Below are positions 9,746 through 34,067 of a stretch of 64,000 nucleotides of DNA, in pieces (position 1 is the first letter of the stretch; each line of letters begins with the position of its first letter). A model generated the notes under the pieces. It saw only the letters and a list, made by a program, of their open reading frames with translations, ran no database searches and was not told where the DNA came from. This DNA comes from Trypanosoma brucei (Eukaryota). The stretch is taken from positions 2,048,001 to 2,112,000 of the forward strand of contig CM000207.1 in assembly GCA_000002445.1 (NCBI GenBank), written 5' to 3'. The translations under genes were made by a program, and so were the position numbers.

Positions 9746-10017
9746 ATACAGTATAACTCATATATAGAGATGATTACATATATAGATACATATATAGACA
9801 TAGGTAGATACAGTTTTAAATGGTGATTTGTATAGCAATATTTGTATATTGTTGCGTACAAAGCACAACATATGACAGTCGTGGGTGCACACACGTCAGT
9901 ACTTTATTCAATCAGTTTTTAGTCACTATCACTGTTGAACATCACGCAATCAAGCAAGTACGCATAAGCACACATATATATATATATATGCATTATTAGT
10001 GGGGGAATATAAATATA

Positions 10018-10100
10018 TGTATTTATGTTTCCTTTCCTTTCCTTCCTTTCTTTTTTTCTTTGTTTGTTTTTTCCTCTTTCCTTTTCTTCTGTTTCTTTCT
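10018..10100. repeat. ~80-nt homopyrimidine·homopurine tract (potential triplex/H-DNA former) within the 3-kb spacer downstream of the HECT gene.
   Basis: tttcctttcctttccttcctttctttttttctttgtttgttttttcctctttccttttcttctgtttctttctc is almost purely C/T on the plus strand. Similar runs occur at 11301-11500 and 11640-11800. Confidence 0.7.
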
Positions 10101-12525: not shown

Positions 12526-15500
12526 CTACGACAGCTCGAATGTATCCCCTGCGTACATGATGCTGAGTTGAAGTTTATTATACATTAGTTCTTCTGTTGG
12601 GTACGGTGGCATCTTCAAATAGCGGAAACACGTATTGACGGATGGAAGGGGCCAATCTATTCCCACAGCTTTAGTTCCGTTGCCCGTCCGTGAGATCCGC
12701 CGTGACCGATCACCGCCTTTTCGCCCGCCGTTAGAACCGTCTTTGCCATTGCCTTCCGTATGGGAGGCATCAGGTAATGTCGGCATATGGGTACTTTGCA
12801 CAACTGTAATGGCACCAAGTGCACTGATGCCGCCATGCGGAAGGCGCGGGCAGCCCGTACAGAAGAGAAGAAATGCTCGTTGCTCACGGGGGCCAAAGCG
12901 CTTCGCGAGAATATTCTGCAGCATTGTTATCTGTGGGGACTCGCTGTTATAACCATGATCGGGGACGATGATGGATTTGATCTCTGCAGCTGTCCAGAGG
13001 GGTTCGGAATCCCTGATGCGATTGCCACACAACAACGACATCGCCTCGCTGGCATCAAGTGCTGCTAGCGCCTCGCAAGGGACCACATCACGGAAACCAT
13101 ATGTAATGAAGCGGATGGGCATAACGACTGACTCATACAAGAGAGCGCTGGCAGCTCGTCTAATGTAAGCGGATACATTCGTCGAGTTTACGCATGTGCT
13201 CTGTCCCTTGTCTATCATCTCGAATCTATCGTCACCGGGCATTGTGAAGGGTAAATCAAGGGATGACAACTCTTTCGAACTCATTGAAAGCAATGAACGT
13301 AAGCTGGAAGCCACTTGCTTATCCATCATCTCCACTTCTTCGATGCCAAGTGACATGAAGTCGATGGGTCGCTCCGGCTCCCACGGCTGCTCCTCCTTTT
13401 CCGTGCAGCGAAGCACTATACGTGATGGTGGAATTCCACGGCAAAGAAACAGCGCCAATGCAGGACTGATATCCAAAGGAAAGACAACTGCATCGGTGAA
13501 TGCCCGACCCAGTACGGTGCCAACGAGATAATACAACTGGGCGCGCTCTTCATCCACCTCGAAAAAATCATTCATACAGAGAAACCTTTCCGTCAACGCT
13601 TTAGTGTCACGACAGGAAGACAGCGATAGATCTGTTGAAAAACGTTGGAGTACTTTGGGGACGGAGCTACACGGAAAAAGTCCCTCAGGGCGGGACTCCA
13701 CCCTCTGCTCATCGTCAAATGTCCCGCTGTTACTCTTCGACCTTAATTGGCGGTTTCCACAACTGTCACCACTTTCATGCGTTGTTGACGAGCGTGAAGA
13801 GTTATTCCATAGCCGCAGCCGACACTTGGTGAGCTCCCTTGCAATGAGGGTGTAGAAGTGTGCCGTCGGTCCCTGGCCTATCCCGACCTCACCCTTGAAC
13901 TGAATCGATATAGGCGCACGGCATTCCGCCCCTTTTCTGAGAACCATGTAGGCTCCATGAAGCAAATCATTGCGACTGACAACATACTTGTGGTTTTCAT
14001 ACTTGGACCACTCTGACGGATACACCTTGTACATACGATACCTCCGACTCCCCATTGAGCTTCTTATATTCGCATGAAGCGCGCGGCGAGCACCATACGC
14101 AAGAAAACGTACGACATCCTCCCGAACGGATGGGGGAACAAGAAACTTTGCCTCCGTCAAAATGAAGTCAACCCAGCGTGGAACAGCGATACGTGGTGGC
14201 AGAAGCGCTATACGAAGCGCCGATGCCGCTACGGATTTAACAAGCTGAGTTGTCAGAATGGCGCTTACAAAAACGTCGGGGTTGATAGGGATCGTATTCG
14301 CCACCATTAATGGTTGAAGTATTTTGTGAAGAAGGATGAGAAGAAGAACATCCGGACTCTGCGAAAGATGTGACGGCTTACGCACCAATTTCGACGGGTA
14401 GGCAGTGTTCAGCTCTTCCCTCGACCGCAGGCCACAACAGCAGTGTGTGTGAGCGTCGCTTTCAAAATGATGAAATCGGTTCAGCTGCCAGCTCGTTATA
14501 TGCTCCTTGTCCTCAGTTGCTGACGGCGGTACTTCTCCATTCACAATGTCCCCACGCAACAGAAGGAGTGTTTTGGATAAGCCCTTTTCTCCACCACCCA
14601 AGTTCAAAGGTTCTCCGTGACTCTCTGGGGTCACAAGACAGCTCTCCAGCTGACCCACAACATCCACTAGACCCAAATTCAACGCCCGCTGCATTATGTT
14701 TCCCATGAGAGTTTCCTGATAAGCACAACGTCCCGTGGGTGACGTATACAAAACATACCGATCTTCCATGGCATCGTGCAACATACGCTCCAACCTGCTT
14801 GGTTCCTCCAGGTCCACAGGCGTTTTTTTGTTGTGGGCATCAAGTTCGTCTAGAGATTCGATCGTCTCCCGCTGCGCGATGAAGCCGTCAATCAGTCGCT
14901 GCAACTCCTGCCGGAGCTCAACATAACTCATCGTTTCCTTTTTTCGCGACAAAACCAGTTGCACTCGTTCCAGAAACACCTCAGCAGCGAGAGTCGATTG
15001 CGGACAAGGAGCAACTTCGGTACCCTTGGTGGAGTTAGAGTCTGTGCGGAATGTCCGCTCAATATCCCCAATGCTAGAAAACAAATGTGCACTAGTAGCA
15101 ACGTTCACACGTGACTTTGGCTGTACTACTGTGTCAGGGGCCCCCGCTGCAACACCATTAAAAGATGAGGAGCGACGACCCGTAGCACCGCCATCACGCG
15201 AAGTGATAAAATGGCTATGGCAACTAACACAGAGAAAATAGTTACACACATTACAACCGAACCCCGTCTCCAGTTGCTCTTCACATGACTCGCAGGAACG
15301 TTTCGGTGCGATCATCTCCAGTGAAAGCAACAAATGGCCATTTGGACAAGACTCACGTACCGTTAGTTTCGAACCGCGCTGCGACACTGCACGTTGGGAG
15401 GGCGTGGAACTAGGAATATCCCCGGATTTGAGGCTGCTGCAGGGTTGATTCCTTCCCCGATCGTGGCTAACACCACGGCGGCAAGGATTTCCCGAACTGG

Positions 15501-18264
15501 ATGGGTAAACTGTCTTGCGACACAGAGATACATCCTGCGATAGCTGCGAAACTGCACTCATGGCTTTGGTCAGCGGCACACAAGTCACACGCTGCGATGT
15601 CATCAGCGATTCAACAAAGGGCAAGTTGCTGATAAGACAAAGGGCAGAAACTAAATTTTCGATTAACGCCTCCACACCACGTGGATACTCGGCCATTAAT
15701 TGTAAGAAACATTTGAGACGATCTTTCTGGCAGAGCCGTTTAAGTTGATCAGCGATACGCACACCCCCAAAAGTTGCTGGGTCGGTTCCTGTGTCAACCG
15801 TAAGGCCCGGGACAACTCCCTCACTTATCAACGCACCGGAAGATTCAGCAGCGCAAGTCGCCCCTATCTCCTCATTTGTATCATACTCGTCTCCTCCAGT
15901 GTTCGACATTAATAGATAGCCCAACACCGCATCCGCAATACCCATTTTAGATATCTCAAATGCTGTTATATTTCCCGACGTTTTCTCCATAACCCTCAGT
16001 ACTTGTGCCACTACCTTCTGGTGCGTTCCAAATACCATAGTTTGCTTTCTCAGTTCTTGCACTGACTCCCAAAGGGCTGTAACACAACCTACATGAGACC
16101 GGGCCGAAGGGGGAACTGAGTTTTCACTCATCTCTTTCTCCACAGTTGACAGTATCGCACGAACCATCGCCATTAAGTGCATCGTTCGGTTCTCGGGTCC
16201 CTCCAGCTTGACTTTTGGTACCATCCGACGAATTTTACCATCTTGATCATCTGCCTGTCGATCATCCAGCCTTTTGCATTTCGAATTGGCCAAATTTTCC
16301 AACTGCTTCACTACGCCGCATCTATAAGCCGTCTCTGCCGCTTTCCACTCTGATGACCCTGGGTGGCGAAGAAGCCACACCATCATCGTGAGAGCCACGG
16401 ATTTCGTTGCCTTGTCAGCCGAAATGAGTGCGGTGCGAAGCATGTCACACAACGGACGCATTGTCTTGCGCAACAGTTCCGTAAGTTGCTGGGGTTTCTT
16501 GGCCAATATCGCTGCCTGAAGCAGAGCCGCGCAGGCACACACGCCCAGTTGCATAGCCATTGATCCCGACGCCCAGGTTGCATATTTGCATAGACTCTCA
16601 AGATACATCTCCGCGATCTTCATGGATGCGGCTGGAACTGGCGCGCTGTTGTTGAGAACATAGTAACGACACAACTCCGACTCACGCCTGTTTACTAGTT
16701 TGTCCATACCAGAAGAAATTGGCACTCCTATATTTTCTTCTGCAGAGTTTGCTATGTATTCAACAACACCCGTGACATCCTTCGCTGCTTTCACAGATCG
16801 TATATCTGCTTCATTCATCACATGAAAGACAAAGGGGACGAATTTGCGTGAAATATTGAGCTCAGCACCTCCAAATCCGCTGCAGATCTTCATTGTTGCA
16901 AGATTCGCAGTTAGTATCTTTGAGTGTATCCTAAGCGTCACCTCTTTTGTACGACGAGCCAAGCAAGTTTCCAGCGTCACACAAGCCTCCTCCGGTATGG
17001 GACTGTTATGCCGCATTTCATCTTCCCACATCCATTTGTGCACAGGAAGAACTACTTTGGGCTTTGGCCCAAAAGCCTCACTGGGAAGTGGGGGGGATGC
17101 CAAAATAAAGTGACGTATGGCAGCAATGGAAACAATATGATTTTTATCGCGCCGATGTGCGGCCCGTGATATGCCACCAACAGGAAAAGGGTCGGACAGA
17201 AGCATTGTAATGCTCGGGTCTGAGTCATCGAGTACAATTCCATAAAAAGCCCGCGCTTCCTTGGAAAGAAGCATATCACTCACATTAACCCAATCTGCCG
17301 TAAGGATAATGTCTATCATCGTTTCCGAGAAGAGAAGACGCTCAGAGCGCACGGAAGGGTCAAGTGCGACGTTACCATCATTTAACAAAAGAAGTCGGTA
17401 AAGACATCGGCAGAGCTCCGATGTTATCATTCTCTGCGCAGATGAAAGGCGGTTGAAGAGCACAGCCCGTCGTATGAGCATGCCGAGACACTGCAATGCC
17501 AACTCCAACAACGACCATGAGTCTGGCGATGATTCAAGACTTGACGCATACTGCTGAATCATACCTTGCAAGAACGGCACAAGAATGTGGTCCGTAGTTA
17601 CTACAGATGGCTTGACGCAAGGTTTATTTTCCTGTTGTTCATCTTTAAGGGACTTGCAGCAGGAGAATAAGGATACTACACTGCTGAAGAATTTCCTCTT
17701 CCTCGTTTCTGACGGTAGTACAACCTTGGAGCAAACGGCTAAAAGAACGTCGAGAGCCTGTCGCGTAAGTAGGGCGTTCTCATACTGTGCAGTCTTGGTG
17801 ACATCTCTTAAGCCAAGGTGTACTAAGGAAACGCTACTTTCATCCAGCGTGACGAACCGAATAAGCCGGAGGACCTCCTCCATCAGCATGACGCGATCCA
17901 AGTTGCTGAAGCGCATCTCCCGACTATGAACACGTGCAAGAACTTCCGTTGCTATACGTACAAGGCGCTTGTGGTATGGATGCACTCCACAATACGAAGT
18001 GGGGACATGTTCCATTATGAGTGAAAGTGCGCGAAAGATCATCGTCAAGGCATCGCCAGCCCTAAAAAAGCGCTCACTCTCCGCCATGTGTACTAAAGTC
18101 GGTACCACCCTCATTGAATCAAATCCACGTAAATAAACCTCTACACCCATTACGAGAGACATGCACATATCCTCCAGTGCACCAACCACTCTCTCAGGGT
18201 CTTTGCTCAGATGTTGAACCGCCTTAATTTGCTGCTTGGAGTCCACCACTAGCTGTCTTGACAT
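12526..18264 (-). CDS. Giant HECT-domain E3 ubiquitin-protein ligase (1912 aa).
   Basis: The C-terminal HECT hallmarks are present: RAFLLFCTGCPRLPHGGISALG, and the catalytic-Cys region PSVNTCFRYLKMPPYPTEELMYNKLQLSIMYAGDTFELS at the extreme C-terminus. Upstream are ARM/HEAT-like helical repeats and a Cys-rich zinc-finger-like cluster (SCESCEEQLETGFGCNVCNYFLCVSCHSH). Confidence 0.85.
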   Translation of the reverse strand: MSRQLVVDSKQQIKAVQHLSKDPERVVGALEDMCMSLVMGVEVYLRGFDSMRVVPTLVHMAESERFFRAGDALTMIFRALSLIMEHVPTSYCGVHPYHKRLVRIATEVLARVHSREMRFSNLDRVMLMEEVLRLIRFVTLDESSVSLVHLGLRDVTKTAQYENALLTRQALDVLLAVCSKVVLPSETRKRKFFSSVVSLFSCCKSLKDEQQENKPCVKPSVVTTDHILVPFLQGMIQQYASSLESSPDSWSLLELALQCLGMLIRRAVLFNRLSSAQRMITSELCRCLYRLLLLNDGNVALDPSVRSERLLFSETMIDIILTADWVNVSDMLLSKEARAFYGIVLDDSDPSITMLLSDPFPVGGISRAAHRRDKNHIVSIAAIRHFILASPPLPSEAFGPKPKVVLPVHKWMWEDEMRHNSPIPEEACVTLETCLARRTKEVTLRIHSKILTANLATMKICSGFGGAELNISRKFVPFVFHVMNEADIRSVKAAKDVTGVVEYIANSAEENIGVPISSGMDKLVNRRESELCRYYVLNNSAPVPAASMKIAEMYLESLCKYATWASGSMAMQLGVCACAALLQAAILAKKPQQLTELLRKTMRPLCDMLRTALISADKATKSVALTMMVWLLRHPGSSEWKAAETAYRCGVVKQLENLANSKCKRLDDRQADDQDGKIRRMVPKVKLEGPENRTMHLMAMVRAILSTVEKEMSENSVPPSARSHVGCVTALWESVQELRKQTMVFGTHQKVVAQVLRVMEKTSGNITAFEISKMGIADAVLGYLLMSNTGGDEYDTNEEIGATCAAESSGALISEGVVPGLTVDTGTDPATFGGVRIADQLKRLCQKDRLKCFLQLMAEYPRGVEALIENLVSALCLISNLPFVESLMTSQRVTCVPLTKAMSAVSQLSQDVSLCRKTVYPSSSGNPCRRGVSHDRGRNQPCSSLKSGDIPSSTPSQRAVSQRGSKLTVRESCPNGHLLLSLEMIAPKRSCESCEEQLETGFGCNVCNYFLCVSCHSHFITSRDGGATGRRSSSFNGVAAGAPDTVVQPKSRVNVATSAHLFSSIGDIERTFRTDSNSTKGTEVAPCPQSTLAAEVFLERVQLVLSRKKETMSYVELRQELQRLIDGFIAQRETIESLDELDAHNKKTPVDLEEPSRLERMLHDAMEDRYVLYTSPTGRCAYQETLMGNIMQRALNLGLVDVVGQLESCLVTPESHGEPLNLGGGEKGLSKTLLLLRGDIVNGEVPPSATEDKEHITSWQLNRFHHFESDAHTHCCCGLRSREELNTAYPSKLVRKPSHLSQSPDVLLLILLHKILQPLMVANTIPINPDVFVSAILTTQLVKSVAASALRIALLPPRIAVPRWVDFILTEAKFLVPPSVREDVVRFLAYGARRALHANIRSSMGSRRYRMYKVYPSEWSKYENHKYVVSRNDLLHGAYMVLRKGAECRAPISIQFKGEVGIGQGPTAHFYTLIARELTKCRLRLWNNSSRSSTTHESGDSCGNRQLRSKSNSGTFDDEQRVESRPEGLFPCSSVPKVLQRFSTDLSLSSCRDTKALTERFLCMNDFFEVDEERAQLYYLVGTVLGRAFTDAVVFPLDISPALALFLCRGIPPSRIVLRCTEKEEQPWEPERPIDFMSLGIEEVEMMDKQVASSLRSLLSMSSKELSSLDLPFTMPGDDRFEMIDKGQSTCVNSTNVSAYIRRAASALLYESVVMPIRFITYGFRDVVPCEALAALDASEAMSLLCGNRIRDSEPLWTAAEIKSIIVPDHGYNSESPQITMLQNILAKRFGPREQRAFLLFCTGCPRLPHGGISALGAITVVQSTHMPTLPDASHTEGNGKDGSNGGRKGGDRSRRISRTGNGTKAVGIDWPLPSVNTCFRYLKMPPYPTEELMYNKLQLSIMYAGDTFELS

Positions 18265-20517
18265 CGTTCCGCCAACTGATAATAAATTTTTTAAAAATCA
18301 CAATCACCACTGCTTTGATAATATTCACAACAGCAACAACAACAGTAGCAGGGTGAAAATATGCACCACGAACAAACGATCGAACACGCCCCAAAACTAT
18401 AATACGAGTTGTATCAAACAGAAGGGAAGTCGAATCTTGTAGGGAGAAGAAAAATAGAATCGAATGTATATATAAATCAATATATATATATCAATATATA
18501 TATATATAATGATAAAAGATAGATAGATACTTGAGGTAAGTATATTTATACCTATCTATATCTAAAATATATGAATATATATTTAGAGATATATATTCTC
18601 TTTGTTGTTACTACAGTAGTTTGTGAAAAAAGGGTACGTTAATACAAGTATAGATGTTTAAAATGTCAATTTAAGAAAGAAGAAAAAAAGGAAAGGAAGC
18701 GCGAGGTACGTTAGAATATGAAATAAGAAATTTGTGGATATTTAAGCAATGAGTGACACATTGTTACTTTAATTATTTCAAAAAAAAAAAAACAGCCTAT
18801 TATTAGTATTATTTTCAAAGGACCCAGAGGAAATGTCCACATATATATATTTATTTATTCATAATTCCCCCTTACCGACCTTAATAATAATAATAATCAT
18901 CTGCATCATGAACATGCGCATCACCTCCAATATATATATATATATATTTGAAAGTTTTATTAATAGTGTTTGACCACCAGCGACGTTTTTCCACCAAAAA
19001 GAGGTGACTGTAGGATTCTTTTTTTTTTCGTTCCATTTTATTGAAAACCTTACACCTTTGCCTTCAAGATGTGCTACTGCTACCATTTAAGTGTTGGACA
19101 AGCAAAAAAAAAAAAAAGAACTAATGACGATGGAGGAAAAAGATGAGAAAAAATAAAGAAAGAAAGAAACAGCAAAAAAAATAATAATTAGATATAGAGA
19201 ATGAATTTAGGAATGTTTTGATAGTAAAATGCACAGCTGAAGTAGTTAACAGAAAAATGTAGCCATGCATCAAACCACCCGGTTGATAAATGGATATCGC
19301 AAAAGTCCAATATTTTTCTTTTCCTTTTTCATTGTAGATATATATTTTTTCTTATATGAATAAATATAAATATATACTTTATGTTTATATTTCTTATATT
19401 TATATATTTCACTGCCGCTACAACCACACTTTTTAAGAGCAAAAAAAAAAAAATCTCACAGTCATTTCTTTATCTCCTCCCTCGCTTCCTCACTCACATG
19501 CTTCATCATTCCTCGTGTCATTATTGTTACCACCTTTTCTTCTTCGTTTCCTCCCTCTTATCACTTGTCGACATTTCAACCAATTAATGAAAGCACATGC
19601 GCACAAAGGGAAGTAAAAATTTTAAAAAAAAACAATAATTTTTTTTTTTAAAAAGGAGCAAAACACAAATAAGGGCTAACGAGAGAAGAAAATAAATGAA
19701 GATGACGGCAGTTCCCTTCGTTAATGTATGGAACATACCTCAACAATAGCAATAATGAACACATGAATGAATGAGCAAAAGGGGTTCGGTACCCCAGCGT
19801 GGAGAGCGACAAGTAACAATTTCGAATAGAGGTGAGGAAAGGAAAAAAAAAGGGAAAACGGGGAAGAATGAGACGGTAAAGCACAAATAATAAATGAAAA
19901 CAGCATCGGAAGCAACAACACCGAGTAGAAAACACTATAAAATAAAACACAAAATGATAAGCATGTCGTTGGTCTTACAATTGAAGTCAAACCATAAAAT
20001 GTGCATGTGTTCGTCAGTGAAAACCCCCGCACATGCGACCCGCACCCTTTTATATACCCACCATCCCTCACAGAAACCGACATGAATAAAGGCGGTACGA
20101 ATAGAAAGAGAAAGGAAGAGAGAAATATGAAAAGCAAGTAAGAGGGGGGGAAAAGGCAGTTAAGCGCAGCGAAACTCCTGAGGAATAACAAAAAGTAAAC
20201 CAAACGTGTCCAATTCGCTCATCTCTTCCTCTCACTCTCTTTATTCTTTTTTTTTCTTCTCACGGTTGTATGACATGAGTCTCTAGACATGATACAAAAG
20301 AGGGCAAACTGTGGGCAGTAAAGAAGAGAGGGGACGACACTCATCAGGTTGTCAAGCAAAGGACCGTTAGCAATTTCCTTCCCTTTTCCTTTTTTCCCTT
20401 TTCCCCTTTTGTGGGTGTACACCTACAATACCGGACAAAAACAAAAGAAAACAAAAACAGCACGTGCAAGAACACGAGCTCTACAATATATGAAATACCA
20501 TTACCAGCAATGGTTCC

Positions 20518-21958: not shown

Positions 21959-23570
21959 CTCACAGCCTTTTAAAAGATAAAATTTCCCCCTCAATTCGTT
22001 TTTTTGTTTTCCTCCTCCTTCCTGTTTCCTTACCTTTGTGTGTGTGTGTGTGTGTTATCTGTTGGTGTTACTGCAAGCACGCTTTGATCAACTACTATCT
22101 GCCTCTGCCTCTGCCTCTTCTTGTCTTTTCTTCCCCTTCCTTCTCTTCTGTTGTTGTTTCCTACTGTCAAAACAGACTGTAAAACAAAAGTCTTTCAACA
22201 CTAAACGAATATGCTACCGAAAACACTTCAACACTGCAAATCTAATTTTTTTTAAAAATGATTCCTCCAAAATGTCAAAAACAAAAGCATATATAAACAT
22301 ATATATATACATGTTCATGTACGCATAAGGAAGCGAGAAGGAAGGAGCAATAAAGTTAAAATATCACAAAAGTGTGCAATCCACATGTTTAAAGAAATTA
22401 TATATATATATATTAATCACGTACTCTCCGTTGGTTGCACAGCGAAAGTCTGGAAACACCAGCAAACTGGCAGCAGCGCATAAGATACTGCGACGTAATT
22501 TAACAAAGATAACTTTTACCGCCATCCTTGGTGAATAATATAATCCTTTAATGGAGAATGAGTTGCAATACTTTCTTTTTCTTCCTTTTTTTTAAAAAAA
22601 AAGGAGCAAAAAATATAATAAATAGGCGGTTCGGCATTTCTATGGAATCGCCCACACGCTTTCATATTTAATTTTACCTTTTCCTTCTTTTTTTTTTGTT
22701 TGCTGTTAACTAACAAGCATCAGCGAGGTATCTATCTACTTGAAAAACTAATACACTAATACATATACCGCCTGCAATAATTTAGTATATAATATAATGT
22801 TACCAATAGGAGACAAGAAAAATGGGGAGAAAAAAGAAAGAAAGAAAAAGGATCCGAAAAAGTGGTGCGGCAACAGTGGTGAGAACAATAATAATAATAA
22901 TAATAGTGGAAAGTAAAAGGTTTATACTTCAATATCCTTCACATAAGATAAAAAGGAATAAAGCGGAGCCGATGGGTGAAATGGAGGGTGTTGGGTGGAA
23001 AATGAGTAAAGTTTTTTTTATAAAAAAAATTAATTATTTGATAAAACGAAACAACAATAGATAAGAATTTTGTTATCACCGTCAATAGCCAACGAAAACG
23101 ACAAATCACCAGGGCAAACAAGAATATCATCAAAACATAATCATCAATGAAACAACGGGAATTGATAAAAAGAAGAAGATATATATATATATTTTTTTGT
23201 GAAACAATAATACTGATCGGAGGGGGAAAAAAAGAAAATTCTACACCCCGCAAGGAGTCGCGTAAACATAAGTACAACAGAACACAATTATTAATTATTT
23301 ATCAGAAGCGCCTTTTTTTTACTAATTACTGTATATCATAACAAAAACGAAATTACGCCTCCGAATAAATATAGAAGTATAGGAACAACAATTTTACATC
23401 CATCAGTCAAACAAAATGAAATATCTAAAATACTGAAGAGAAGAGAAAGTAGAGGTAGAAAAAAAACAAAAGAAAAACGGGTTGCAACCACACTTATATA
23501 CAATATTCTCAAATAAAAATATACAAATGTACATATATATTTTTTTATATATATTTATATATTTATTTAA

Positions 23571-23601
<31 letters not shown>

Positions 23602-24776
23602 TATGTTTGTGTTACTTACTCTTCATGAAGGGGGGAAGAGGGGGAGAAATGTGAAGTTAAGCCACACCTCCACTCCTCTCTTCTTCTCTGTCCCGCACTC
23701 CCCCTTATATGCTGATTTGTTCTGTTCATTATATTTATATTTTATACTTTTTACCGTATAATATTGTTTTTTTTTTAATATTATTATTATTATTACTTAT
23801 TACTTATTATCATTTTGTATCCCTATCTCTCTGAAGGGAAATACGTAGAAGTTAAGAGAAGGGAGAAACCGTTTTTTTTTTTTCTCTTCCCACACATATA
23901 TATACACACACACAAATAACAACAACAAAACACAGCCAGAACAGAACAAAGCACAGCACATCACAGCAGAACAAAACAAAACAAAACGGACCAAAATACG
24001 AAGAAAAGAAAAAATGGAAATGCCCAACGCGAGAAGAGGAAGACAAAACAAAAACAAAAATGAAGTCACAAACGTGAGAAAATTTGTTGAAAGAGACGGA
24101 GTTTTTAAAAGGAAAAAAAAGAAGAATGAGGAGGAGGGGAGGGGAGGGGGGAATAAATGTTAAAGCAAAAAGTGGCAAAATATGATATGATATTTAAAAA
24201 ATGGGGGAAAGAGAAAGGTAATTATACATAACAATAAACAGAGGCATATAAATGTGAATGTGAATATGAATATGAATGTGGTACCGAGAAAGGAAGAAAT
24301 TAAAAAGTTGAAACATAAAAACAGAAGAAGAAAAAAGGAACGTAAAATTCATTCCGTCCACAAAGGGCAAACTAACTCGTGCAGGAGCACTTTTTATTTA
24401 TGTGTGTTTATGTGTGTGTGTTTGTGCTTGTATGTATGTAAGTTTATTCTCTTTTTACAAACCTTTGCTATATATTTTTTTCCTTAGCTTTTCCTATGCT
24501 TCCTCACCCCCACCATACACACACGCCCACACACCAACCCCCCACAAAAAAAAAAAAAAATCGCCTCCTTCTCATTCATTTGCCTCAGCTCAATTCATTT
24601 CGTACACAAACATGTAAATATATAAACATATATATTTACATATTAAATTATTATTTATTTACTTATTTTCATAAAGTTATAACAAAAAAAAAGCCCTCAT
24701 ATGAAAACGCGTTAACGTCATCCCCATTTCTTCCATTTATACCCAGTTGTTCTTTTTCTCTCCCTTTCTCACACAT

Positions 24777-24825
<49 letters not shown>

Positions 24826-25183
24826 CCGTCAAGCAGGAGAGAGGGGGAAGAAAGAAAAAAAAAAGATAAACAAAAAGTGAAAGCAAAAATAAAAATAAAA
24901 GTGAAGCTTAATTCTTTTTTTAAAAAAAAAAAAGAAATTAAACAAATAAACCACCCAATTCATTCATTCATTCAGTGGCAAAAGGATAACCCAATTACAT
25001 ATAACATATGGAATATAATATATAATATATAATGCGAATGAACGGGTAGTAATGGCATGTGACTGTGTATATATGTGCAAAAATCAATGAGCGAAAACAA
25101 CTGAGTAAAAAAAAAAGAAAAAAATGAATGAGTGACGAGTAATGGGAGGGGGATAGAAAAAGGAGCGGTAATAACAATACAAT

Positions 25184-25220
25184 AGTAATAATAATAATTA
25201 TTATTATTATTATTACTATT
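25184..25220. repeat. Near-perfect inverted repeat (TAA)n|(TTA)n, capable of forming a hairpin or cruciform.
   Basis: agtaataataataatta|ttattattattattact. Confidence 0.7.
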
Positions 25221-26529
25221 GGAAGAAAAAGAAAAAGAGACAATAATGAAAGGACAACAAAGAGCATACGCGAGGGAAGATGAAAAAGAAAGAAAGAATA
25301 AAAAATGAATAACTCCGTGCTATTCTATGCAAAAAAAATAAAATAAAATAAAATAAGAAAACAAAATATTAATATTAATAAACGCACTAATAAATAATCA
25401 ATTAAAGAAAAGGGAAGGAAAAAAAAAGAATCACAATTTTCTTCTTTTCTTTATTACTTACCTTTTCTTCACTCATTTCTCTTTGCTTCCTCACTTTTGT
25501 TTTTCTTTTTGCTTCTTCCTTCACTTCTGCTGCTTCATTTCCCGCACACACAAACGCACACACAAAAAAACACATCATCTTCAGAATCAGCAGCAGCACT
25601 AGCACCAAAATAGAAATCAATCAACAAAAAAAATTCTTTCCCCCTCCTCCTTATTTGATTTTATCTCTCATTTTATTATTTTATTTTATTTTTTTTAAAA
25701 AAAAGAACACACAAACTCAAGCGGATAAAAACCATCTCATCTACCATTAAATCCCCTCTTCCACTTCAACAACTTCATCCTTATAATTTTTTTTCTTTTT
25801 TTTTTGTACCTCTTCATTTGTTTCATTTATTCATATTCCATTTCTCCGCTTTTAGATTTTTATTCCCCCTAATTTCTCCTCTTAAAGAAAAAGAGAAGAA
25901 AAAAAAGTGAAATGAATCTAACACTATTCATTGGTTCGATACTCCACTAATCCCATTTTATTTTTTATTTTTTTTTTTTCGGTGGCATGTAAGACACAGG
26001 AATAAACAAACAGAGGATATTAATGTCTTGCTTTTATTGTTTCTCTCTTTAGAAACGATTTTTTTTTGTTTTACCAAAAGATAAAACGAAAGATCAAAAA
26101 ATTTTTTAACAAAAAAAAAAAAGAACATCATGAAGCCAAAAAAAAAAAAAGAAACTGCTACAACGGAAAAGAGAAAAAAAAGATAAAGAGAAAAAGTTAA
26201 AGAAGGTAAAATGCGTACACGTCGCACAAAATAGCCAAGACGGACGTTAAATCACTTTCTCTTCCACTACGACACGAAATCAGACAAACGTGTGATATGA
26301 AAACGAAGAATTGAAAACACAAACATAAACATACGCATACAAAACACCCACCAAACCTCTTCTTAACAAATTGAAATAGCCGACAACGACATTTAAGGGA
26401 GGGGGGAAGCAGCAAAGTAACGCAAACTAACACAAACAGTAACAGAAACATTAAATACAAAAACACAATTCACCCAACCACACACAAATGTCTCCCCCTT
26501 CTTCCCAACCCCTCCATCATTATCATTCT

Positions 26530-27981
26530 TCAAAAAAAAGTTGGTTCAACCTGAGGTACCTCTGCATAAAAGAGAATATACGCCTTCTCAAGTTCTTGCA
26601 TTACATCGACAGACCGCGAAGGTGTAATTGCTCCATCATTACAAAGGTACCACTCGCCAAACGCCACACGCACATAACTTGTGTAATGTCCAGACATCTC
26701 CGTACCGCTATGCATCAATACGCCATACAAACTATATCGCAATGATTTCTCCCCACCTGTCATGAAGGTTTCGGGGTATATGACATTTACAAGATTCTTC
26801 TTCCCATACTCGTCAAATCGTTTCAAATGCAAGACTAATAACTTTGGCCATTGCCTCACGACAACACATCGGCTTCCCGAGCGAAGGCGTTTGCATCGTG
26901 AGCAGTAAATACGATTACTTCCATCCATTTTCTCCGCTTTACCTTCCACAAAGTTAGCCTGAAGAATGGCCTCAAGATTGGCACCAAATGGCATTTCGTG
27001 TCCTATAGGTAATGAAAGATCCAAAAACGCTTCAAAGGTCCTTGAAGAATTTTCGCAGCTGTTACAGAAACAAGTCCCAAGCGTGGTTCCCCCAAAGAGA
27101 TCGTAAATGGGAGATTTGTCGAAACATGCGAACTGATCACGCCACATCCCGAACGCTGTCTCCTCATCCTCCTTGCCAACATAACCCATATCATCAATGT
27201 GCAACTTAGCGCGAGGTGCGGTATTGATTTCATTGTGCACTACCGAAAGGAAGGTTCTAAGAAACTCATGCGCATCCGCTTGAGTGAAATCCTTAAATTC
27301 ATCATTGTACTTCGCTGCTTCGGATTTGAAGGTAACGAGAAATTCCTTTGGGTCCCCTTCCGACATCCTAAAGAAGTTCAGCATCGCCGCCGCTGCCGGA
27401 TGTGATTCAGCATTCAACTGGCACTGCTCTAAGGCGAGAGCCAACGACGGGCTCTGTCGAAGACACTGCACCACCGAATTCATATAACATGTGTTACCTA
27501 AATTTGGAAGCGGAATTGGCAGTGGCCACATGACATGTTTTGGCAACGCCGAAACACGGATGTGCGGCCTAGGCACCTCTAGATGAACATCAAATTCGAC
27601 TGAAGGCGGGCGTGGGATTCTATCTTTCCTAATCGGACTAGTCGGTCGACTACGGGACGGCCGCCGGGTGTTTCCACGCGCCAGCTGAAGATCCGCCAAC
27701 GAAAACAACTGAGAGTCAGTTGTGTCAGTCCGCTGCAATGTACTTTTCTCACGTGGGAGTGCAGTACTATCGGTTACGGCAGTGTGCCGGGGGTATAAAT
27801 GCGGCAGTTGATGTTCCGACACCTGTGACACCACCGCAGGGACAACACCGGGAATCTCCGCACGCATCAGAAATAACCCCCCACCACACCACACCCGTCG
27901 TTTGTTGCGTTGGTAATGCCGTGCACGAGGGCAGATGGAACAGAAACGGTAGTGGTAGGGACTTCTACGAAAGACGAACAA
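26530..27981 (-). CDS. Ubiquitin carboxyl-terminal hydrolase (USP family, peptidase C19). The true start may be the internal Met at 27867.
   Basis: The catalytic Cys-box GNTCYMNSVVQCL is present. The His-box region GHYTSYVR...WYLCNDGAI lies near the C-terminus. Confidence 0.85.
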   Translation of the reverse strand: MFVFRRSPYHYRFCSICPRARHYQRNKRRVWCGGGLFLMRAEIPGVVPAVVSQVSEHQLPHLYPRHTAVTDSTALPREKSTLQRTDTTDSQLFSLADLQLARGNTRRPSRSRPTSPIRKDRIPRPPSVEFDVHLEVPRPHIRVSALPKHVMWPLPIPLPNLGNTCYMNSVVQCLRQSPSLALALEQCQLNAESHPAAAAMLNFFRMSEGDPKEFLVTFKSEAAKYNDEFKDFTQADAHEFLRTFLSVVHNEINTAPRAKLHIDDMGYVGKEDEETAFGMWRDQFACFDKSPIYDLFGGTTLGTCFCNSCENSSRTFEAFLDLSLPIGHEMPFGANLEAILQANFVEGKAEKMDGSNRIYCSRCKRLRSGSRCVVVRQWPKLLVLHLKRFDEYGKKNLVNVIYPETFMTGGEKSLRYSLYGVLMHSGTEMSGHYTSYVRVAFGEWYLCNDGAITPSRSVDVMQELEKAYILFYAEVPQVEPTFF

Positions 27982-29330: not shown

Positions 29331-32300
29331 TTATGTCGCCGGACTCCACATGCGTAACATCGTTAACCGGCCCGTCGGGTCACCAATTACCACCGCCGCG
29401 GCCTTATCGCTAGGCTCTGTAGCCACATCCCAAGCAGTAATTTCACATTCATGAACAAACTCAGCATCAGCCACGCCTTCTATGACCTCATCTTCAGGTT
29501 CTTCTTCCATTAGTTCAATGCTCTCTCCTTGCATTTCATCTACAGTGTCATCGTCAGGCACGGGAAAGGGCATATGCTTCCTTGGAAGCACCCAAAACTT
29601 CAACTGCTTGTCGTTGCCCAAGGCGAAAATGCCATCGTCACCCCACTTGAAGCGTAACCCGCTCACAGTGGGTAAAGCGGAATAGCGGAATGCGCTGAAG
29701 TGATTTGTTGGCGTCACCGTGAGAACATCCACAGCCGCATCTCCAACTTGTCGTATCCGTGACCACGGAAGACGGTAGACTGCAACGGATCCATCTTCAA
29801 GCCCGGCCGCCACCATCCGCTCATTTGAGGAGAGTTGATACACTACGTGATTGCAAGAGCTCACCAATACGGCCACTTCCCGCCCCGCTTCCACATCGCA
29901 CAACCGCAGTTGCCGGGGTGGTGGCAAATGTCCGCTGGCTGTTGGAGGGAATGGTGCTGGGTAAAGAAGAAAGTGGGTACAGGAGCGAATCATCTTTCCG
30001 GATTCTACGCTGAAGGGAAGGCTAAAGGTTCTCTCCTTTTCGAAGGCATTGCGTGCAGTACTCAATTGCCACATTATTACAACATTGTGACAAACACTGT
30101 AGAATATTTCGTCCTCGGACCTATGCGGCAACACGGTAGTGAAGCCTCGTATCCTGTTGATGTCTGCCATCTCGCATTTTTCCAAGAAATGGCGCTGATC
30201 CACATCCAGTACAACAGAAGTTTTTTCTGTGTCGTAAGCGCGAAGGTAGAGATCCTCAGTGGTTACTAAGTAGAAACGGCCACGGGCAGAGAAGGCCACA
30301 GAAGTCAGTGGTGCTCCAAAAGTGCCGCCATCGCACCGGGAGACGATGTTCATCTCCGCACTGTCATAGATTAGTAACGTACGGTCGTGACAAACTGTGG
30401 CGTGGTAAGCTCCCGTTTCGCACCACAATAAACTTTCCACAGCAGACGGCGAGCGCCTCACCTGCACTTCTACAGCACCCGTAACAGGATGTACCGCGCA
30501 GATACTGCGATCGGCACTAGCGGTGATAATACGTTTACCGCGTGAGGGAATGCAGCAAGCGGTAATCGTCCTCTGATGAATTTGTTTTTTCGCTGAAAGG
30601 GCCATAGTGGTGAAAAACGATAGGCGGCGCTGGCGGAGTGGGCAGGTGATGGTTAGCATTTGAGTAACGTACGCTCTCGCATCCATTGAAACGTATGGGT
30701 ACCGGTTTCCACTTTCAATCGCTGTCCCAACCACCAGGTGTGGATACTTGGTTAATTTTGAGTTATACTGCCGCAAAAAGTATATGTAGTCGCGTAGACG
30801 AAGAATTGATGTTGGTTTCTGGCGGGTGGTTACATCAACATCTTCGTCGAATGTATATTCACCAACTTCATAGGACTCATGGAAGGAATTAAAGGCACTG
30901 ATGAGCTCCCTTACCAGATGGTAACCGAGTGAATTACGGTATACAACCATCAAATAGGGCATGGTTAGCACGACGCGGTGTATGACGTGAGCTTCCTGCG
31001 CCTCCACAGCGTGGTACGGTAGTTCCTTTACCGCCGTTCGCTCGAACGGATTTGTTGATGATAGTCCAAGAAGCACCTCCCCTTTCTCACGCCCAAGAAC
31101 CTCGTGCACCACATCATGATAACAACGCAGCAGCATACCGTGCCACACCTTGTAATCGCTCTCGCTTCCCTCCTCCAGAACATCTTCGCGTTTAATCAGC
31201 TCGCGGAACGCGCGTGATCGTATACAGACACGAACGTTAAGAGCGTTTCCACCTTCTGTTCCAATGTTACATACTGTGCCACTGTAAATCAAGGGCCTCA
31301 TCATGCGAATTAAGCGGTTAAAACGCGTGCAGGTCAACTGTAACATGGCACGCAGTTGGGGTTCATGAATACCCCATCGGGAACAAACGAGCAAACGCGT
31401 GCACTTTCGGATAAGGGCCGTGCCAAAGCTATCGTTCAGTTTGTCATAGACCTGTTGCACCATACCATCAACTGTGCCGGGTAGTGAAACCTTTATTGCA
31501 TGTGTCCCCAGACCAGGTGCCTCATTAAAACTGCGTAGCACATCTACAACCTGTAAAACATACTCTGGGCACAGTGCTTGCTCCTTCTGACGAATCAACA
31601 TAAAGTCATCGTCCGACAGGGTCACACCAATTCTTCCCATGACCTCAGGTCGAAGCATATCATCAAAATCATTAGGCGTCATGTTACCCACTGGGAGGAA
31701 CTCTACGCTGTCTTTGCCACGTGTTTGTAATTGTTTGTACAGTGTGGAATCCGTCTCACATCCCAACACCAGTCGTACGTTGCGGGACAAACAATACGGC
31801 AAACAAGCGAAAGCACCAGGTCGTAGAGCTGGCGCTTCCCAAACGTCTTTCCCAGTTTTCTCGCACATCCTTAGTGCCGTGCACGGTTCTACGGGCGCAA
31901 TGACATTATCTATTCCATCTAGAATAACAACAGTAATAACTTTTTCATTTCCATCGGACTTAGCATCGCCGTTGCCGTTAAGTTGCTCAGCCATCTTTCC
32001 CTTTTCTGTTATGGTATCCAAAAACAGTTTTTGAAGCCGACCCAAGTCCACCTCACCGATCGCTGATCGATACACCTCCTGATTAGGATACAACTGATGA
32101 ATAATGGTACATATAATATTGCGGAGCTCTGTGGGCTCCTCTGTCAGCAGAGCAGAGTGTGTCGTGTGGTACGCTACACGGCATTTCTGCGCGCTTTTCG
32201 TCAGTAGTCCCCACGTGAATGATGAAATGAGTTCACTGACTGCACTGATGTCTGCACTATGCAACAACAGAGAATTTCTGCTAGGCGGCGCAATAACGTA

Positions 32301-34067
32301 CAGGTCCAATCGGTTGGTGATATTCTTTTTCACCAAATGACAGTGAAGGCGCGAGAAGAGAAGTGTGTGTAACCATTCGTGATATTGTTTTAGTTTTTGT
32401 AACACCTTTTCCTTCTCGGCCGATCCATAGAAGTACGAAGGGTGTCCTTCCTTAACCGGTGGAAAGTGGGCCGACATCACGCGTTGTATCCGCTCATACA
32501 CGGCTTGACAGAACTCTTCCAAATGCTTAAGGTGGACCTGGCCGTCTGCACCACACCGGTCAAACTCAGCGTTGTAGTCAGGTATCACGAGCTCTGGTGT
32601 ATCTGCTCCCTCAACAACGTACTGTTTGAACACCTGGTGCTCCTGCCACTTCTTCTCCTTTACAGCAGCATCGCAACAAATTAACTGTGATGGGCACACT
32701 TCTTTTGCAGCCACAGTGCACGTACGGCGCACCTGCCGTTGAAGATAGTCTGGGTGCTCAATAGGGGGTTCCTCCGTCAGTAGCGGCGCCAATGAGGGTG
32801 GAATTCCAAGCTTGCGGGTTCCCTTCCGCGTGGCTATTATACGCCAACTGGAGACCTCCATAGCTCGTCTGTGTGCGGCATGTAAAACTGGCTGAAGTGG
32901 TGGAGCTTGAGGACTTTCGGAGGGAACCACTTGTGAGCTCATGGACCTGAGTCGGTAGGGTGCGCCCAAACTCTGACGGTTCAACATGTCGTTCGCCGTC
33001 ATGGCGCGATAGTCTCCTTCACGGTCTCCTATAAGTTCAAGAGTCAAGAATCGAGACTTCTCAACGTCACGCAAAACATCCACCTGAATGGCAAAACGTA
33101 GATTCTTCAGGCACACGCCGGCCGGCTCCTCTGGGGGGCTAAATAAGGGATTAAGATGGACCCTGCTTCCAACGAATTCCTCATTCAACAGAGGAAACAC
33201 CCGGTTGAGGAGCAGCTCTGTTTCCGAATGGAATATGAATGGTGGAGCCAGGATGGCCACCTCCAACAACCGCCACCCGGATTCGATGTGGGGAAGGGGA
33301 ACAAACTTGTTACCTGAAGCAACCACCGACTTTGTAAAGGTGGAAAGCCGATCTAGTGCAACCGTTTCCTTCTGCATCCAATCAGCCTTGCGCACCGTCT
33401 CCCGCATTGTTGAAGCAAAAGTACTTGTTGCCGGTTTCTCTTCAACAACAGTGCCAGTGATCCTATTCCCCTCAGCGTCCACCCTGAATGCTTCAATTGC
33501 GCACCGCCCCTCAGCACACTCCTCGCGAGTGGCCACCTCTTTACCTGAGGCATTACCTGCCGTCTCACACAGTCTATTTCGTTCAAGAGCCTTCTCAATC
33601 TTCTTCATAACTCCTTCAGGTACCTGTGTGTTGCTCAGGTCGGCATGTACAATACCAGGGTTATGTTGCAGCAGTGAAAGGACCGCCAATCCGGCAGTGA
33701 GAGAAATAGTGTTACCTGAAAAATCGAGTTTTTCTAGACTCCGATGCTTAATCATTGCCCGACAGAAGAAAGCAACAGAGTCATTGTTGAGACCACTGCA
33801 AGGAACAATGAGCTCCTTCAACTTGTCGTTCTTCACAAGGAGGCTCGTCACAGCCTGAAGCCCAACGGCACCGATATAATTCCGCCTAAGATCCACAACC
33901 TCACTAAAACGTATGGTTTCCACTTGCGACGAAAGCAGTGGGTTCATTTTAGCTTTCAATGAAATGTAATTGGCGACAAGCTCCTCGTACGCGTCCGTGC
34001 TTCTCGTGTCCTCCTTCTGCGGCATGAACTGCGAGGGAAGAAGAACAGGACTCTGCGCGTTAGTCAT
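29331..34067 (-). CDS. Large LRR (RNI-like) and WD40 repeat protein with an uncharacterised central domain, possibly a degenerate P-loop NTPase.
   Basis: N-terminal ribonuclease-inhibitor-type leucine-rich repeats are present (LKELIVPCSGLNNDSVAFFCRAMIKHRSLEKLDFSGNTISLTAGLAVLSLLQHN). C-terminal WD40-like blades are present (IITASADRSICAVHPVTG...; LLIYDSAEMNIVSRCDGG...; YLVTTEDLYLRAYD). The central region contains LYVIAPPSRNSLLL, which resembles a degenerate Walker A, and VITVVILDGIDNV, which is Walker-B-like. Confidence 0.7.
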   Translation of the reverse strand: MTNAQSPVLLPSQFMPQKEDTRSTDAYEELVANYISLKAKMNPLLSSQVETIRFSEVVDLRRNYIGAVGLQAVTSLLVKNDKLKELIVPCSGLNNDSVAFFCRAMIKHRSLEKLDFSGNTISLTAGLAVLSLLQHNPGIVHADLSNTQVPEGVMKKIEKALERNRLCETAGNASGKEVATREECAEGRCAIEAFRVDAEGNRITGTVVEEKPATSTFASTMRETVRKADWMQKETVALDRLSTFTKSVVASGNKFVPLPHIESGWRLLEVAILAPPFIFHSETELLLNRVFPLLNEEFVGSRVHLNPLFSPPEEPAGVCLKNLRFAIQVDVLRDVEKSRFLTLELIGDREGDYRAMTANDMLNRQSLGAPYRLRSMSSQVVPSESPQAPPLQPVLHAAHRRAMEVSSWRIIATRKGTRKLGIPPSLAPLLTEEPPIEHPDYLQRQVRRTCTVAAKEVCPSQLICCDAAVKEKKWQEHQVFKQYVVEGADTPELVIPDYNAEFDRCGADGQVHLKHLEEFCQAVYERIQRVMSAHFPPVKEGHPSYFYGSAEKEKVLQKLKQYHEWLHTLLFSRLHCHLVKKNITNRLDLYVIAPPSRNSLLLHSADISAVSELISSFTWGLLTKSAQKCRVAYHTTHSALLTEEPTELRNIICTIIHQLYPNQEVYRSAIGEVDLGRLQKLFLDTITEKGKMAEQLNGNGDAKSDGNEKVITVVILDGIDNVIAPVEPCTALRMCEKTGKDVWEAPALRPGAFACLPYCLSRNVRLVLGCETDSTLYKQLQTRGKDSVEFLPVGNMTPNDFDDMLRPEVMGRIGVTLSDDDFMLIRQKEQALCPEYVLQVVDVLRSFNEAPGLGTHAIKVSLPGTVDGMVQQVYDKLNDSFGTALIRKCTRLLVCSRWGIHEPQLRAMLQLTCTRFNRLIRMMRPLIYSGTVCNIGTEGGNALNVRVCIRSRAFRELIKREDVLEEGSESDYKVWHGMLLRCYHDVVHEVLGREKGEVLLGLSSTNPFERTAVKELPYHAVEAQEAHVIHRVVLTMPYLMVVYRNSLGYHLVRELISAFNSFHESYEVGEYTFDEDVDVTTRQKPTSILRLRDYIYFLRQYNSKLTKYPHLVVGTAIESGNRYPYVSMDARAYVTQMLTITCPLRQRRLSFFTTMALSAKKQIHQRTITACCIPSRGKRIITASADRSICAVHPVTGAVEVQVRRSPSAVESLLWCETGAYHATVCHDRTLLIYDSAEMNIVSRCDGGTFGAPLTSVAFSARGRFYLVTTEDLYLRAYDTEKTSVVLDVDQRHFLEKCEMADINRIRGFTTVLPHRSEDEIFYSVCHNVVIMWQLSTARNAFEKERTFSLPFSVESGKMIRSCTHFLLYPAPFPPTASGHLPPPRQLRLCDVEAGREVAVLVSSCNHVVYQLSSNERMVAAGLEDGSVAVYRLPWSRIRQVGDAAVDVLTVTPTNHFSAFRYSALPTVSGLRFKWGDDGIFALGNDKQLKFWVLPRKHMPFPVPDDDTVDEMQGESIELMEEEPEDEVIEGVADAEFVHECEITAWDVATEPSDKAAAVVIGDPTGRLTMLRMWSPAT

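Follow-up and report, generated by a model that had tools for sequence, protein, structure and literature searches.

What lies in the middle of a long Trypanosoma brucei protein that has leucine-rich repeats (LRRs) at one end and a WD40 array at the other? The protein in question is encoded within a 64,000-nucleotide stretch of T. brucei contig CM000207.1 (the window). Its open reading frame (ORF), at window positions 29331-34067 of the minus strand, is complete with a stop codon and specifies 1578 amino acids. The product is identical to a T. brucei brucei TREU927 protein (100% identity, 100% coverage), which is named 'Flagellar Member 5' (FLAM5) in UniRef and 'hypothetical protein, conserved' at NCBI. 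FLAM names were reportedly introduced by the proteomics work of Subota et al. in 2014, and a flagellar location for FLAM5 is taken here solely from its database name. A preliminary description of the sequence saw RNI-type LRRs, a possible degenerate NTPase core and WD40 blades in that order, and likened the arrangement to STAND or ROCO proteins. The analysis described below leads, with good confidence, to the view that FLAM5 is a highly divergent NACHT STAND protein resembling NWD1 and NPHP3, that its P-loop has been destroyed and that its most likely role is that of a fixed scaffold.

The earlier domain assignments, as found in the source names and precomputed Pfam entries examined, are confined to WD40 and LRR. 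A NACHT or STAND label for FLAM5 or its orthologues is absent from the source names, the precomputed Pfam assignments and the searchable literature, and a literature keyword search on NACHT, STAND and trypanosomatid returned nothing relevant. One T. theileri orthologue has a precomputed PF27087 assignment. In the only trypanosomatid paper found to mention FLAM5, the protein appears among predicted palmitoylation targets and serves for qPCR in Leishmania (PMC6022219).

The evidence about the centre of the protein begins with homology. Full-length orthologues were recovered by a word-index protein search from Trypanosoma species, Leishmania, Porcisia and kinetoplastid-like assemblies, with identities of 28-63%. 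An alignment of orthologues over residues 250-1150 (A2) was used as a HMMER profile against 1.84 billion representative proteins and gave 469 matches at E<=1e-3. The first tier of these (E 1e-146 to 1e-29) spans nearly the whole profile or at least its larger part and is orthologue-like. Its sources include the diplonemids Artemidia motanka, Lacrimia lanifica and Diplonema papillatum and the prokinetoplastid Papus ankaliazontas, and the first-tier orthologues scanned in Pfam have the same LRR ... WD40 layout as FLAM5. The family itself appears to be confined to Euglenozoa. Past a sharp drop there is a second tier (E 1e-16 to 1e-7), to which Amoebozoa, glaucophytes, Fabomonas and the archaeon Methanoperedens contribute. 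These remote proteins match collinearly in up to four segments, corresponding to DUF4062, a pre-NACHT stretch, a stretch beyond Walker B that includes the winged helix, and helical domain 2 (HD2). Pfam finds AAA_16 in 30 of the 32 remote homologues scanned, NACHT in 27, DUF4062 in 26 and NPHP3_N in 15. WD40 or TPR arrays follow the NTPase part, and HTH_NWD1 is present in some. In other words, the remote homologues of FLAM5 have the NWD1/NPHP3-type DUF4062-NACHT-repeat architecture.

The match to the remote homologues is best conserved in the stretch that makes up helical domain 1 (HD1) and the winged-helix domain (WHD; profile positions ~533-715), and HD2 is matched at profile positions ~790-930. 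At the equivalent stretches of one orthologue, P0020, Pfam reports HTH_NWD1 (E 1e-4) and APAF1_C (E 0.002). A further step runs through the diplonemids. Two diplonemid orthologues pass Pfam NPHP3_N, with 33.6 and 25.0 bits (gathering cut-off 24.8), and the matched stretch includes their loops GPRGAGAT and GPKGAGKD. Therefore, a chain of individually significant steps connects T. brucei FLAM5 with a curated P-loop family. Directly, Pfam detects no NTPase family in FLAM5, and NACHT, NPHP3_N and AAA_16 do not reach the gathering threshold, whereas the orthologue profile finds canonical NACHT proteins. The similarity to recognised NACHT proteins is also significant from profile to profile. A local hhalign comparison of the Euglenozoan nucleotide-binding and oligomerisation domain (NOD) alignment (A3; 20 sequences, residues 572-1150) with 98 canonical remote proteins gives Prob 100 and E 2.5e-65 over 475 columns.

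The predicted structure points the same way. A first AlphaFold run on residues 250-1150, with 11 kinetoplastid sequences, reached a pLDDT of 60 and left the nucleotide-binding domain (NBD) essentially unmodelled; Foldseek placed Apaf-1 at the top even of this model (E 5e-3). AlphaFold2 with the deeper A3 alignment produced a model of residues 572-1150 with a pLDDT of 81.7 and a pTM of 0.84. It has the P-loop NTPase/STAND fold, in which an alpha/beta NBD is followed by HD1, WHD and HD2, the last being all-helical at a pLDDT of about 85-95. The top Foldseek match to this model in the PDB is ADP-bound Apaf-1 (E 1.3e-5, TM 0.49, ~610 columns). Avs3, NLRP2, Avs5, a TPR-STAND, Dark, CED-4, NOD2 and NRC2 come next, and ORC/Cdc6 is also matched. 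Together with motif conservation, fold and homology support what the preliminary description had suspected, a degenerate STAND-type NTPase between the LRRs and the WD40 array. Neither of the outcomes that it had named as refuting, a centre without a P-loop NTPase fold or motifs that vary among orthologues, came about.

Where, then, is the P-loop? The preliminary description had placed it at VIAPPSRNSLLL (residues 591-602), reading PPSRN as a P-loop in which GK had been replaced by RN. This register is wrong, because the family alignment, hhalign and the AlphaFold secondary structure all place PPSRN before strand beta1. In the hhalign comparison it lies opposite non-conserved columns of the canonical NWD1-like proteins. 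PPSRN is a family-specific motif, invariant or nearly so, and not the P-loop; the true equivalent of Walker A lies 8-10 residues downstream. There, the GxpGsGKS of the 98 canonical proteins falls on S604-S611 with posterior confidence 9, and the T. brucei residues concerned, SADISAVS, sit between beta1 and alpha1 in the model. The family alignment pairs them with HGPRGAGAT in Artemidia, HGPKGAGKD in Lacrimia and HGGPGSTMT in other Euglenozoan orthologues. APRGAGTT and HGNQGVGVT are further loops at this position in non-trypanosomatid members, and T. brucei has H-SADISAVS.

The remote NACHT proteins have a canonical GxxxxGK[ST] loop in 98 of 104 cases, and it lies ~100-120 residues upstream of the profile-matched segment in nearly all of the 40 remote proteins listed. 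FLAM5 has no such loop at residues 604-611. The lysine has become V610 and the three glycines S604, I607 and A609, and the Ser/Thr is kept as S611. Of the 25 Euglenozoan sequences that could be aligned at the loop, 24 have no lysine at the Walker A position. The sole lysine-keeping member found is Lacrimia lanifica P0033 (GPKGAGKD, residues 554-561), where the next Ser/Thr is an Asp. This lysine may have survived from the ancestral active site, or it may have arisen by reversion. The glycines have a different distribution: the trypanosomatid sequences have lost GxxGxG, but it survives in many orthologues from outside that group, the named diplonemids and Papus among them. This indicates stepwise decay of the P-loop. 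Perhaps the lysine went first and the whole glycine loop later, in trypanosomatids. Mean conservation among 15 kinetoplastid orthologues is 0.46 for the loop (604-611), 0.58 for the region 250-1150 and 0.76 for alpha0-PPSRN-beta1. Judging from these alignments, the loop is now evolving faster within kinetoplastids than the columns around it.

The Walker B assignment of the preliminary description, of the form hhhhDGhD, is correct. VITVVILDGIDNV occupies residues 710-722, about 120 residues past VIAPPSRNSLLL, and includes VVILDGID, which agrees with the pattern hhhhD[GA]hD/E. In hhalign this pairs with the hhhhD of canonical NWD1-like proteins, the Walker B Asp being D717 (confidence 9), and it forms a strand in the model. 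Of the 15 kinetoplastid orthologues, 14 have D717 and one has Glu there; all 15 have G718, and all have D or E at position 720. P594, S596, R597, N598, L602 and H603 are invariant in the same 15 sequences, and SRN is invariant in all 20 sequences of the Euglenozoan alignment. Both motifs are thus conserved among orthologues, invariantly or nearly so and far beyond chance, and are therefore under selection. Other residues around the pocket are retained too, as are the beta-strand core, the winged helix and HD2. The invariant K580 and K581 occupy the place of the STAND 'FxGR' motif. R762 and R765, likewise invariant among kinetoplastid orthologues, belong to the beta4 region (762-774), which pairs with 'LPxxVRxIVSxL' of canonical NWD1-like proteins and is where most remote HMM matches start. 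Position 611 is S or T in nine of the 15. As a separate observation, PPSRN, K580/K581 and L602-H603 make up a lineage-specific conserved element framing strand beta1.

Upstream of the NOD there is a second link with NWD1-like proteins. Residues 262-350 match the DUF4062 regions of NWD1-like proteins in hhalign with Prob 98.7 and E 2.5e-16 over 85 columns. Here GWRLLEVAILAPPFIFHSETELLLNRVFPLL pairs with GWrtvRVFISSTFxDMxxERDxLvxxVFPeL of the canonical relatives, and LELIGDREG pairs with glLGeRYGW of canonical DUF4062. The orthologue hidden Markov model (HMM) also hits the DUF4062 positions of remote relatives collinearly, so that the N-terminal DUF4062 typical of the NWD1-like subgroup is recognisable in FLAM5 by two routes. 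In the first AlphaFold model this part has a beta-alpha-beta fold with a pLDDT of about 70-86; its Foldseek matches to TIR and N-glycosidase structures are non-significant (E 0.6-1.5) and are not relied on. The Pfam DUF4062 model makes no call on T. brucei FLAM5 or on the kinetoplastid central regions. Between the DUF4062-like domain and the NOD, the linker contains blocks that are invariant among kinetoplastid orthologues, such as PSLAPLL and EHPD. It has weak collinear HMM matches in remote relatives (profile positions ~266-311) and low pLDDT in the first model.

The two ends of the protein are as the preliminary description had them. Residues ~57-165 match RI-like, LRRC34, NOD2-LRR and NLRP5-LRR chains in a phmmer search of the PDB, with E 1e-5 to 1e-2. 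Pfam LRR_6 is weak in T. brucei FLAM5 (E 0.076) and above the cut-off in the T. theileri, Lacrimia and P0020 orthologues. The N-terminal LRR is also present in P0020, P0032 and Lacrimia P0033, all of which were scanned in Pfam. At the other end, Pfam WD40 scores 35.2 bits (cut-off 27) and ANAPC4_WD40 23.4 (cut-off 22.9), and many beta-propeller families match residues 1159-1450. The WD40 array supplies the C-terminal repeat 'sensor' that is usual in STAND proteins. The LRRs precede the NOD, so FLAM5 does not have the C-terminal LRR sensor of metazoan-type NOD-like receptors (NLRs). The cassette of DUF4062, linker, NOD and WD40 is the standard NWD1-type one, and the N-terminal RNI-type LRR is an addition to it. 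Five of the seven top PDB matches of the LRR have ciliary- or flagellar-looking names (LRRC34, FAP101 and 'leucine-rich repeat protein' chains). These five matches, to residues ~57-165, are in PDB entries 9y6s, 9e5c, 8j07, 9fqr and 7n6g, and FLAM5 itself is not among the solved chains. Going by the chain names, the entries may be axonemal complexes. The features of the protein are collected in Table 1.

Table 1. Features of FLAM5: window coordinates, residues and the evidence used. Elements of the residue 572-1150 model are listed after the domains and motifs.
Feature	Window position (strand)	Residues	Basis or remark
N-terminal RNI-type LRRs	33573..33950 (-)	~40-165, about four 28-aa repeats	phmmer against PDB, Pfam
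DUF4062-like domain	33018..33284 (-)	262-350	hhalign, collinear HMM matches, first AlphaFold model
Linker before NOD	32334..33017 (-)	351-578	conserved in family; no assigned fold
Degenerate NACHT/STAND nucleotide-binding domain	31620..32333 (-)	~579-816	alpha0, beta1, alpha1, beta2 ... beta3 (Walker B), beta4, beta5
PPSRN motif	32274..32288 (-)	594-598	coil directly before strand beta1
Walker A remnant SADISAVS	32235..32258 (-)	604-611	family and profile-profile alignment, model
Walker B VVILDGID	31908..31931 (-)	713-720	conservation, alignment, model
Strand beta4 / sensor-1 region RNVRLVLGCETDS	31746..31784 (-)	762-774	alignment, conservation, model
Helical domain 1 and winged-helix domain	31170..31619 (-)	~817-966	HMM matches, superposition
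Helical domain 2, APAF1_C-like	30618..31169 (-)	~967-1150	HMM matches, model
C-terminal WD40 beta-propeller region	29334..30593 (-)	1159-1578	Pfam
Model helix alpha0		581-592	
Model coil (PPSRN)		594-598	
Model strand beta1		599-604	
Model beta1-alpha1 connection			2 residues
Model helix alpha1		607-624	
Model strand beta2		629-635	
Model helices and low-confidence insertion		insertion at 691-707	
Model strand beta3 (Walker B)		711-717	
Model strand beta4		764-771	
Model strand beta5		788-792	
Model helical, winged-helix and helical domains		up to 1150	

What would a STAND module of this kind do? With no lysine, no glycine loop and a connection of only two residues between beta1 and alpha1 in the model, T. 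brucei FLAM5 has probably lost both the hydrolysis and the binding of nucleotide. If so, there would be no ADP/ATP exchange cycle to open and oligomerise the protein. The NOD would instead be a rigid connector, held closed in an arrangement like that of ADP-bound Apaf-1. FLAM5 would most likely be a constitutive scaffold or adaptor in the flagellum, with partners docking at its two ends, the LRRs and the DUF4062-like domain at one and the WD40 propeller at the other.

What if FLAM5 were still a working switch? In this scenario, the main alternative, a remodelled pocket binds ATP, GTP or another phosphorylated ligand, and the basic residues K580/K581, R597 and R762/R765 stand in for the Walker A lysine. 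The retained pocket residues fit this idea: D717 and D720 are kept, K580, K581, R762 and R765 are invariant and position 611 is often S or T. So do the GxxGxG loops of many non-trypanosomatid orthologues and the GAGK of Lacrimia. However, the T. brucei protein lacks all three glycines as well as the lysine, and its model offers no loop that could wrap around a phosphate. The loop is the least conserved part of the kinetoplastid NBD core; active P-loop NTPases show the reverse. In addition, R597, going by the topology of the model, is at the N-terminal end of beta1, with the phosphate site on the opposite side of the sheet. A working switch is therefore unlikely.

The reading of FLAM5 as a switchless STAND scaffold stands on its fold, homology, motif states and pattern of conservation, and there are several points that weigh against it. 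The homology of FLAM5 to NTPases comes from transitive, profile-level and predicted-structure evidence. The hhalign partners were picked with a related profile, so that this comparison is not fully independent, although this is mitigated by the fact that the P-loop segment lay outside most of the original matches to those partners. The retention of D717/D720, K580/K581 and R762/R765 does not look like fully relaxed selection on a nucleotide pocket. Lost catalysis is also not the same as lost function, because some NLRs signal independently of the P-loop. Finally, the view of a closed NOD comes from a single AlphaFold model, and AlphaFold tends to predict STAND proteins as closed regardless of their real state.

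Another possibility is that the centre is a degenerate ORC/Cdc6-type or classical AAA+ domain that works in a ring or clamp-loader-like assembly. The sequence PPSRNSLLLHG does echo the AAA 'PPxGhLLxGPPGTGKT' box. However, the longest superpositions are with STAND proteins (419 residues for Apaf-1, 363 for MalT and 333 for NRC2), whereas Cdc6 and ORC superpose over ~240 only. The profile homologues are NACHT, NPHP3_N, DUF4062 and HTH_NWD1 proteins and not AAA or ORC proteins, and a WHD with HD2 and a C-terminal repeat sensor is the STAND layout. This makes an ORC/Cdc6 or AAA+ identity decidedly improbable. The classical AAA reading of PPSRNSLLLHG is rejected on both fold and the identity of the homologues.

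The preliminary description had itself allowed that both motifs might be chance resemblances within an unrelated alpha/beta domain, the centre being no relative of P-loop NTPases. Its own P-loop register was indeed a look-alike, and direct searches of the kinetoplastid proteins are empty for the centre. Full-length T. brucei FLAM5 gives no NTPase family in Pfam (E<=10) or NCBIfam, and neither do 11 kinetoplastid central regions taken one by one in Pfam at E<=10. A phmmer search of PDB sequences with FLAM5 returns LRR and WD40 matches only, and hmmsearch with the kinetoplastid central-region profile against PDB sequences returns chance matches only (E>0.7). The failed direct Pfam and NCBIfam searches are uninformative and are not negative evidence. 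Against chance stand the collinear, multi-segment matches to canonical NACHT proteins in the whole library, the hhalign result, the diplonemid orthologues that bridge to NPHP3_N and a confident model whose top matches are STAND proteins. A chance resemblance is thus very unlikely indeed. Least tenable is a ROCO identity, with a degenerate Roc GTPase and COR between LRR and WD40 as in LRRK2: ROCO proteins (LRRK2-like LRR-Roc-COR-kinase-WD40) have only the superficial outer LRR/WD40 order in common with FLAM5, their core is a Ras-like Roc GTPase plus COR and that of FLAM5 a STAND/AAA+ fold, Roc, Ras and COR families are absent from FLAM5 and 11 kinetoplastid regions even at E<=10, every significant structural match has an AAA+/STAND fold with a winged helix, with no Ras-like structure among them, and the homologues are NACHT/DUF4062 proteins. 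Hence only the STAND half of the suggested STAND/ROCO likeness stands.

How does FLAM5 compare with known systems? It has its cassette order in common with NWD1/NWD2-type NACHT-WD40 proteins (mammalian NWD1, Caenorhabditis elegans QUI-1) and with the DUF4062-NACHT-WD40/TPR relatives of protists, archaea and bacteria. The shared cassette consists of DUF4062, linker, NACHT NBD, HTH_NWD1-type winged helix, helical domain and WD40. QUI-1/NWD1, a conserved NACHT/WD40 protein, is described as acting in sensory neurons and as poorly understood in its function (PMC8871372). Compared with the NWD1 type, FLAM5 adds the N-terminal RNI-type LRR and the family-specific PPSRN motif, and its divergence puts it beyond the reach of the Pfam NACHT, DUF4062 and HTH_NWD1 models. 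FLAM5 is a member of the NWD1/NPHP3 clade and not necessarily an orthologue of NWD1 itself. NPHP3 is another of the closest known proteins; its N-terminal family NPHP3_N (PF24883) is the one passed by diplonemid orthologues and found in nearly half (15/32) of the remote homologues scanned. NPHP3 belongs to the inversin compartment of cilia, and its P-loop is canonical. Unlike FLAM5, it has C-terminal TPR repeats instead of WD40 and no N-terminal LRR. The common ciliary or flagellar association of NPHP3 and FLAM5 may be a coincidence.

Apaf-1, CED-4 and Dark, so prominent among the structural matches, have about 10% sequence identity with FLAM5. By sequence FLAM5 groups with the NACHT/NWD1 branch and not with their NB-ARC branch. 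Apaf-1, unlike FLAM5, begins with a CARD effector and has kept its nucleotide site, which is essential to it. Pseudo-ATPases are known elsewhere, in the AAA+-like domain of Sir3, the non-catalytic ORC subunits and sensor NLRs with degenerate P-loops. Sir3 and the non-catalytic ORC subunits are conceptual precedents for FLAM5 as a pseudo-NTPase. However, these pseudo-ATPases belong to other clades and settings (chromatin, replication and immunity), and none is flagellar or has the LRR-DUF4062-NOD-WD40 layout.

The genomic setting adds nothing on function, because the neighbours of FLAM5 are unrelated housekeeping genes of one minus-strand polycistron. Every plausible gene of the window is on the minus strand, the arrangement to be expected of a trypanosome polycistron. 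The neighbours encode a UCH deubiquitinase, Spt4, a SET-domain protein, a Vps5-like sorting nexin, aminopeptidase P, a HECT ligase, a DEAD-box helicase, a CAF1-family nuclease and a HEAT-repeat protein. Two ubiquitin-system genes lie less than 15 kb downstream of FLAM5, one for a HECT E3 ligase of 1912 aa (12526-18264, minus strand) and one for the UCH-family deubiquitinase (26530-27981, minus strand). Their nearness is probably coincidental in a trypanosome polycistron. Within the FLAM5 coding region there is an antisense ORF of 256 aa (33088-33858, plus strand), which is on the opposite strand to every other gene of the window and is most likely spurious. Three other ORFs, of 1150, 900 and 526 aa (2709-6161, 52263-54965 and 649-2229, all on the minus strand), have no Pfam match at E<=1e-5 and may encode kinetoplastid-specific or very divergent proteins. 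The stretches between ORFs at 10000-12000, 18000-20000 and 22000-26000 are AT-rich (GC 0.30-0.33, against ~0.48 in genes) and are presumably long untranslated or intergenic regions. The gap at 22-26.5 kb is unusually long, with ~4.5 kb lacking any ORF of at least 200 aa, and contains an (AT)36 microsatellite at 23533-23604.

What does this mean for FLAM5 and its family? In the first place it is a re-annotation with an evolutionary story; it reveals no new type of system, and what it says of function is read from sequence. Nevertheless, recognising a STAND cassette with a dead P-loop gives a structural and mechanistic framework to a protein that has had only a name derived from proteomics, and singles out PPSRN, H603, D717/D720 and the surfaces of the LRRs and WD40 propeller as sites for mutation. 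It documents in kinetoplastids and diplonemids a STAND-class protein that ordinary Pfam scans miss. The orthologues also form a naturally graded series, from a GxxGxG loop (in one case with the lysine) to no loop at all, in which the change of STAND modules into pseudo-NTPase scaffolds can be studied. FLAM5 would be a third cilium-linked member, beside NPHP3 and NWD1/QUI-1, of a clade whose cellular role is poorly understood. A bolder proposal can be added, though it is a long shot. It holds that there is an ancient, Euglenozoa-wide and flagellum-resident STAND lineage whose switch was dismantled step by step, and in which the new element made up of K580/K581, PPSRN and L602-H603 locks the NOD or binds another ligand or partner. 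If this were true, the lineage, NPHP3 and NWD1/QUI-1 would jointly suggest a conserved and so far unrecognised role of the NWD1/NPHP3 clade as organisers of ciliary signalling, and FLAM5 would be a natural 'nucleotide-free' mutant in which switchless STAND modules could be studied.

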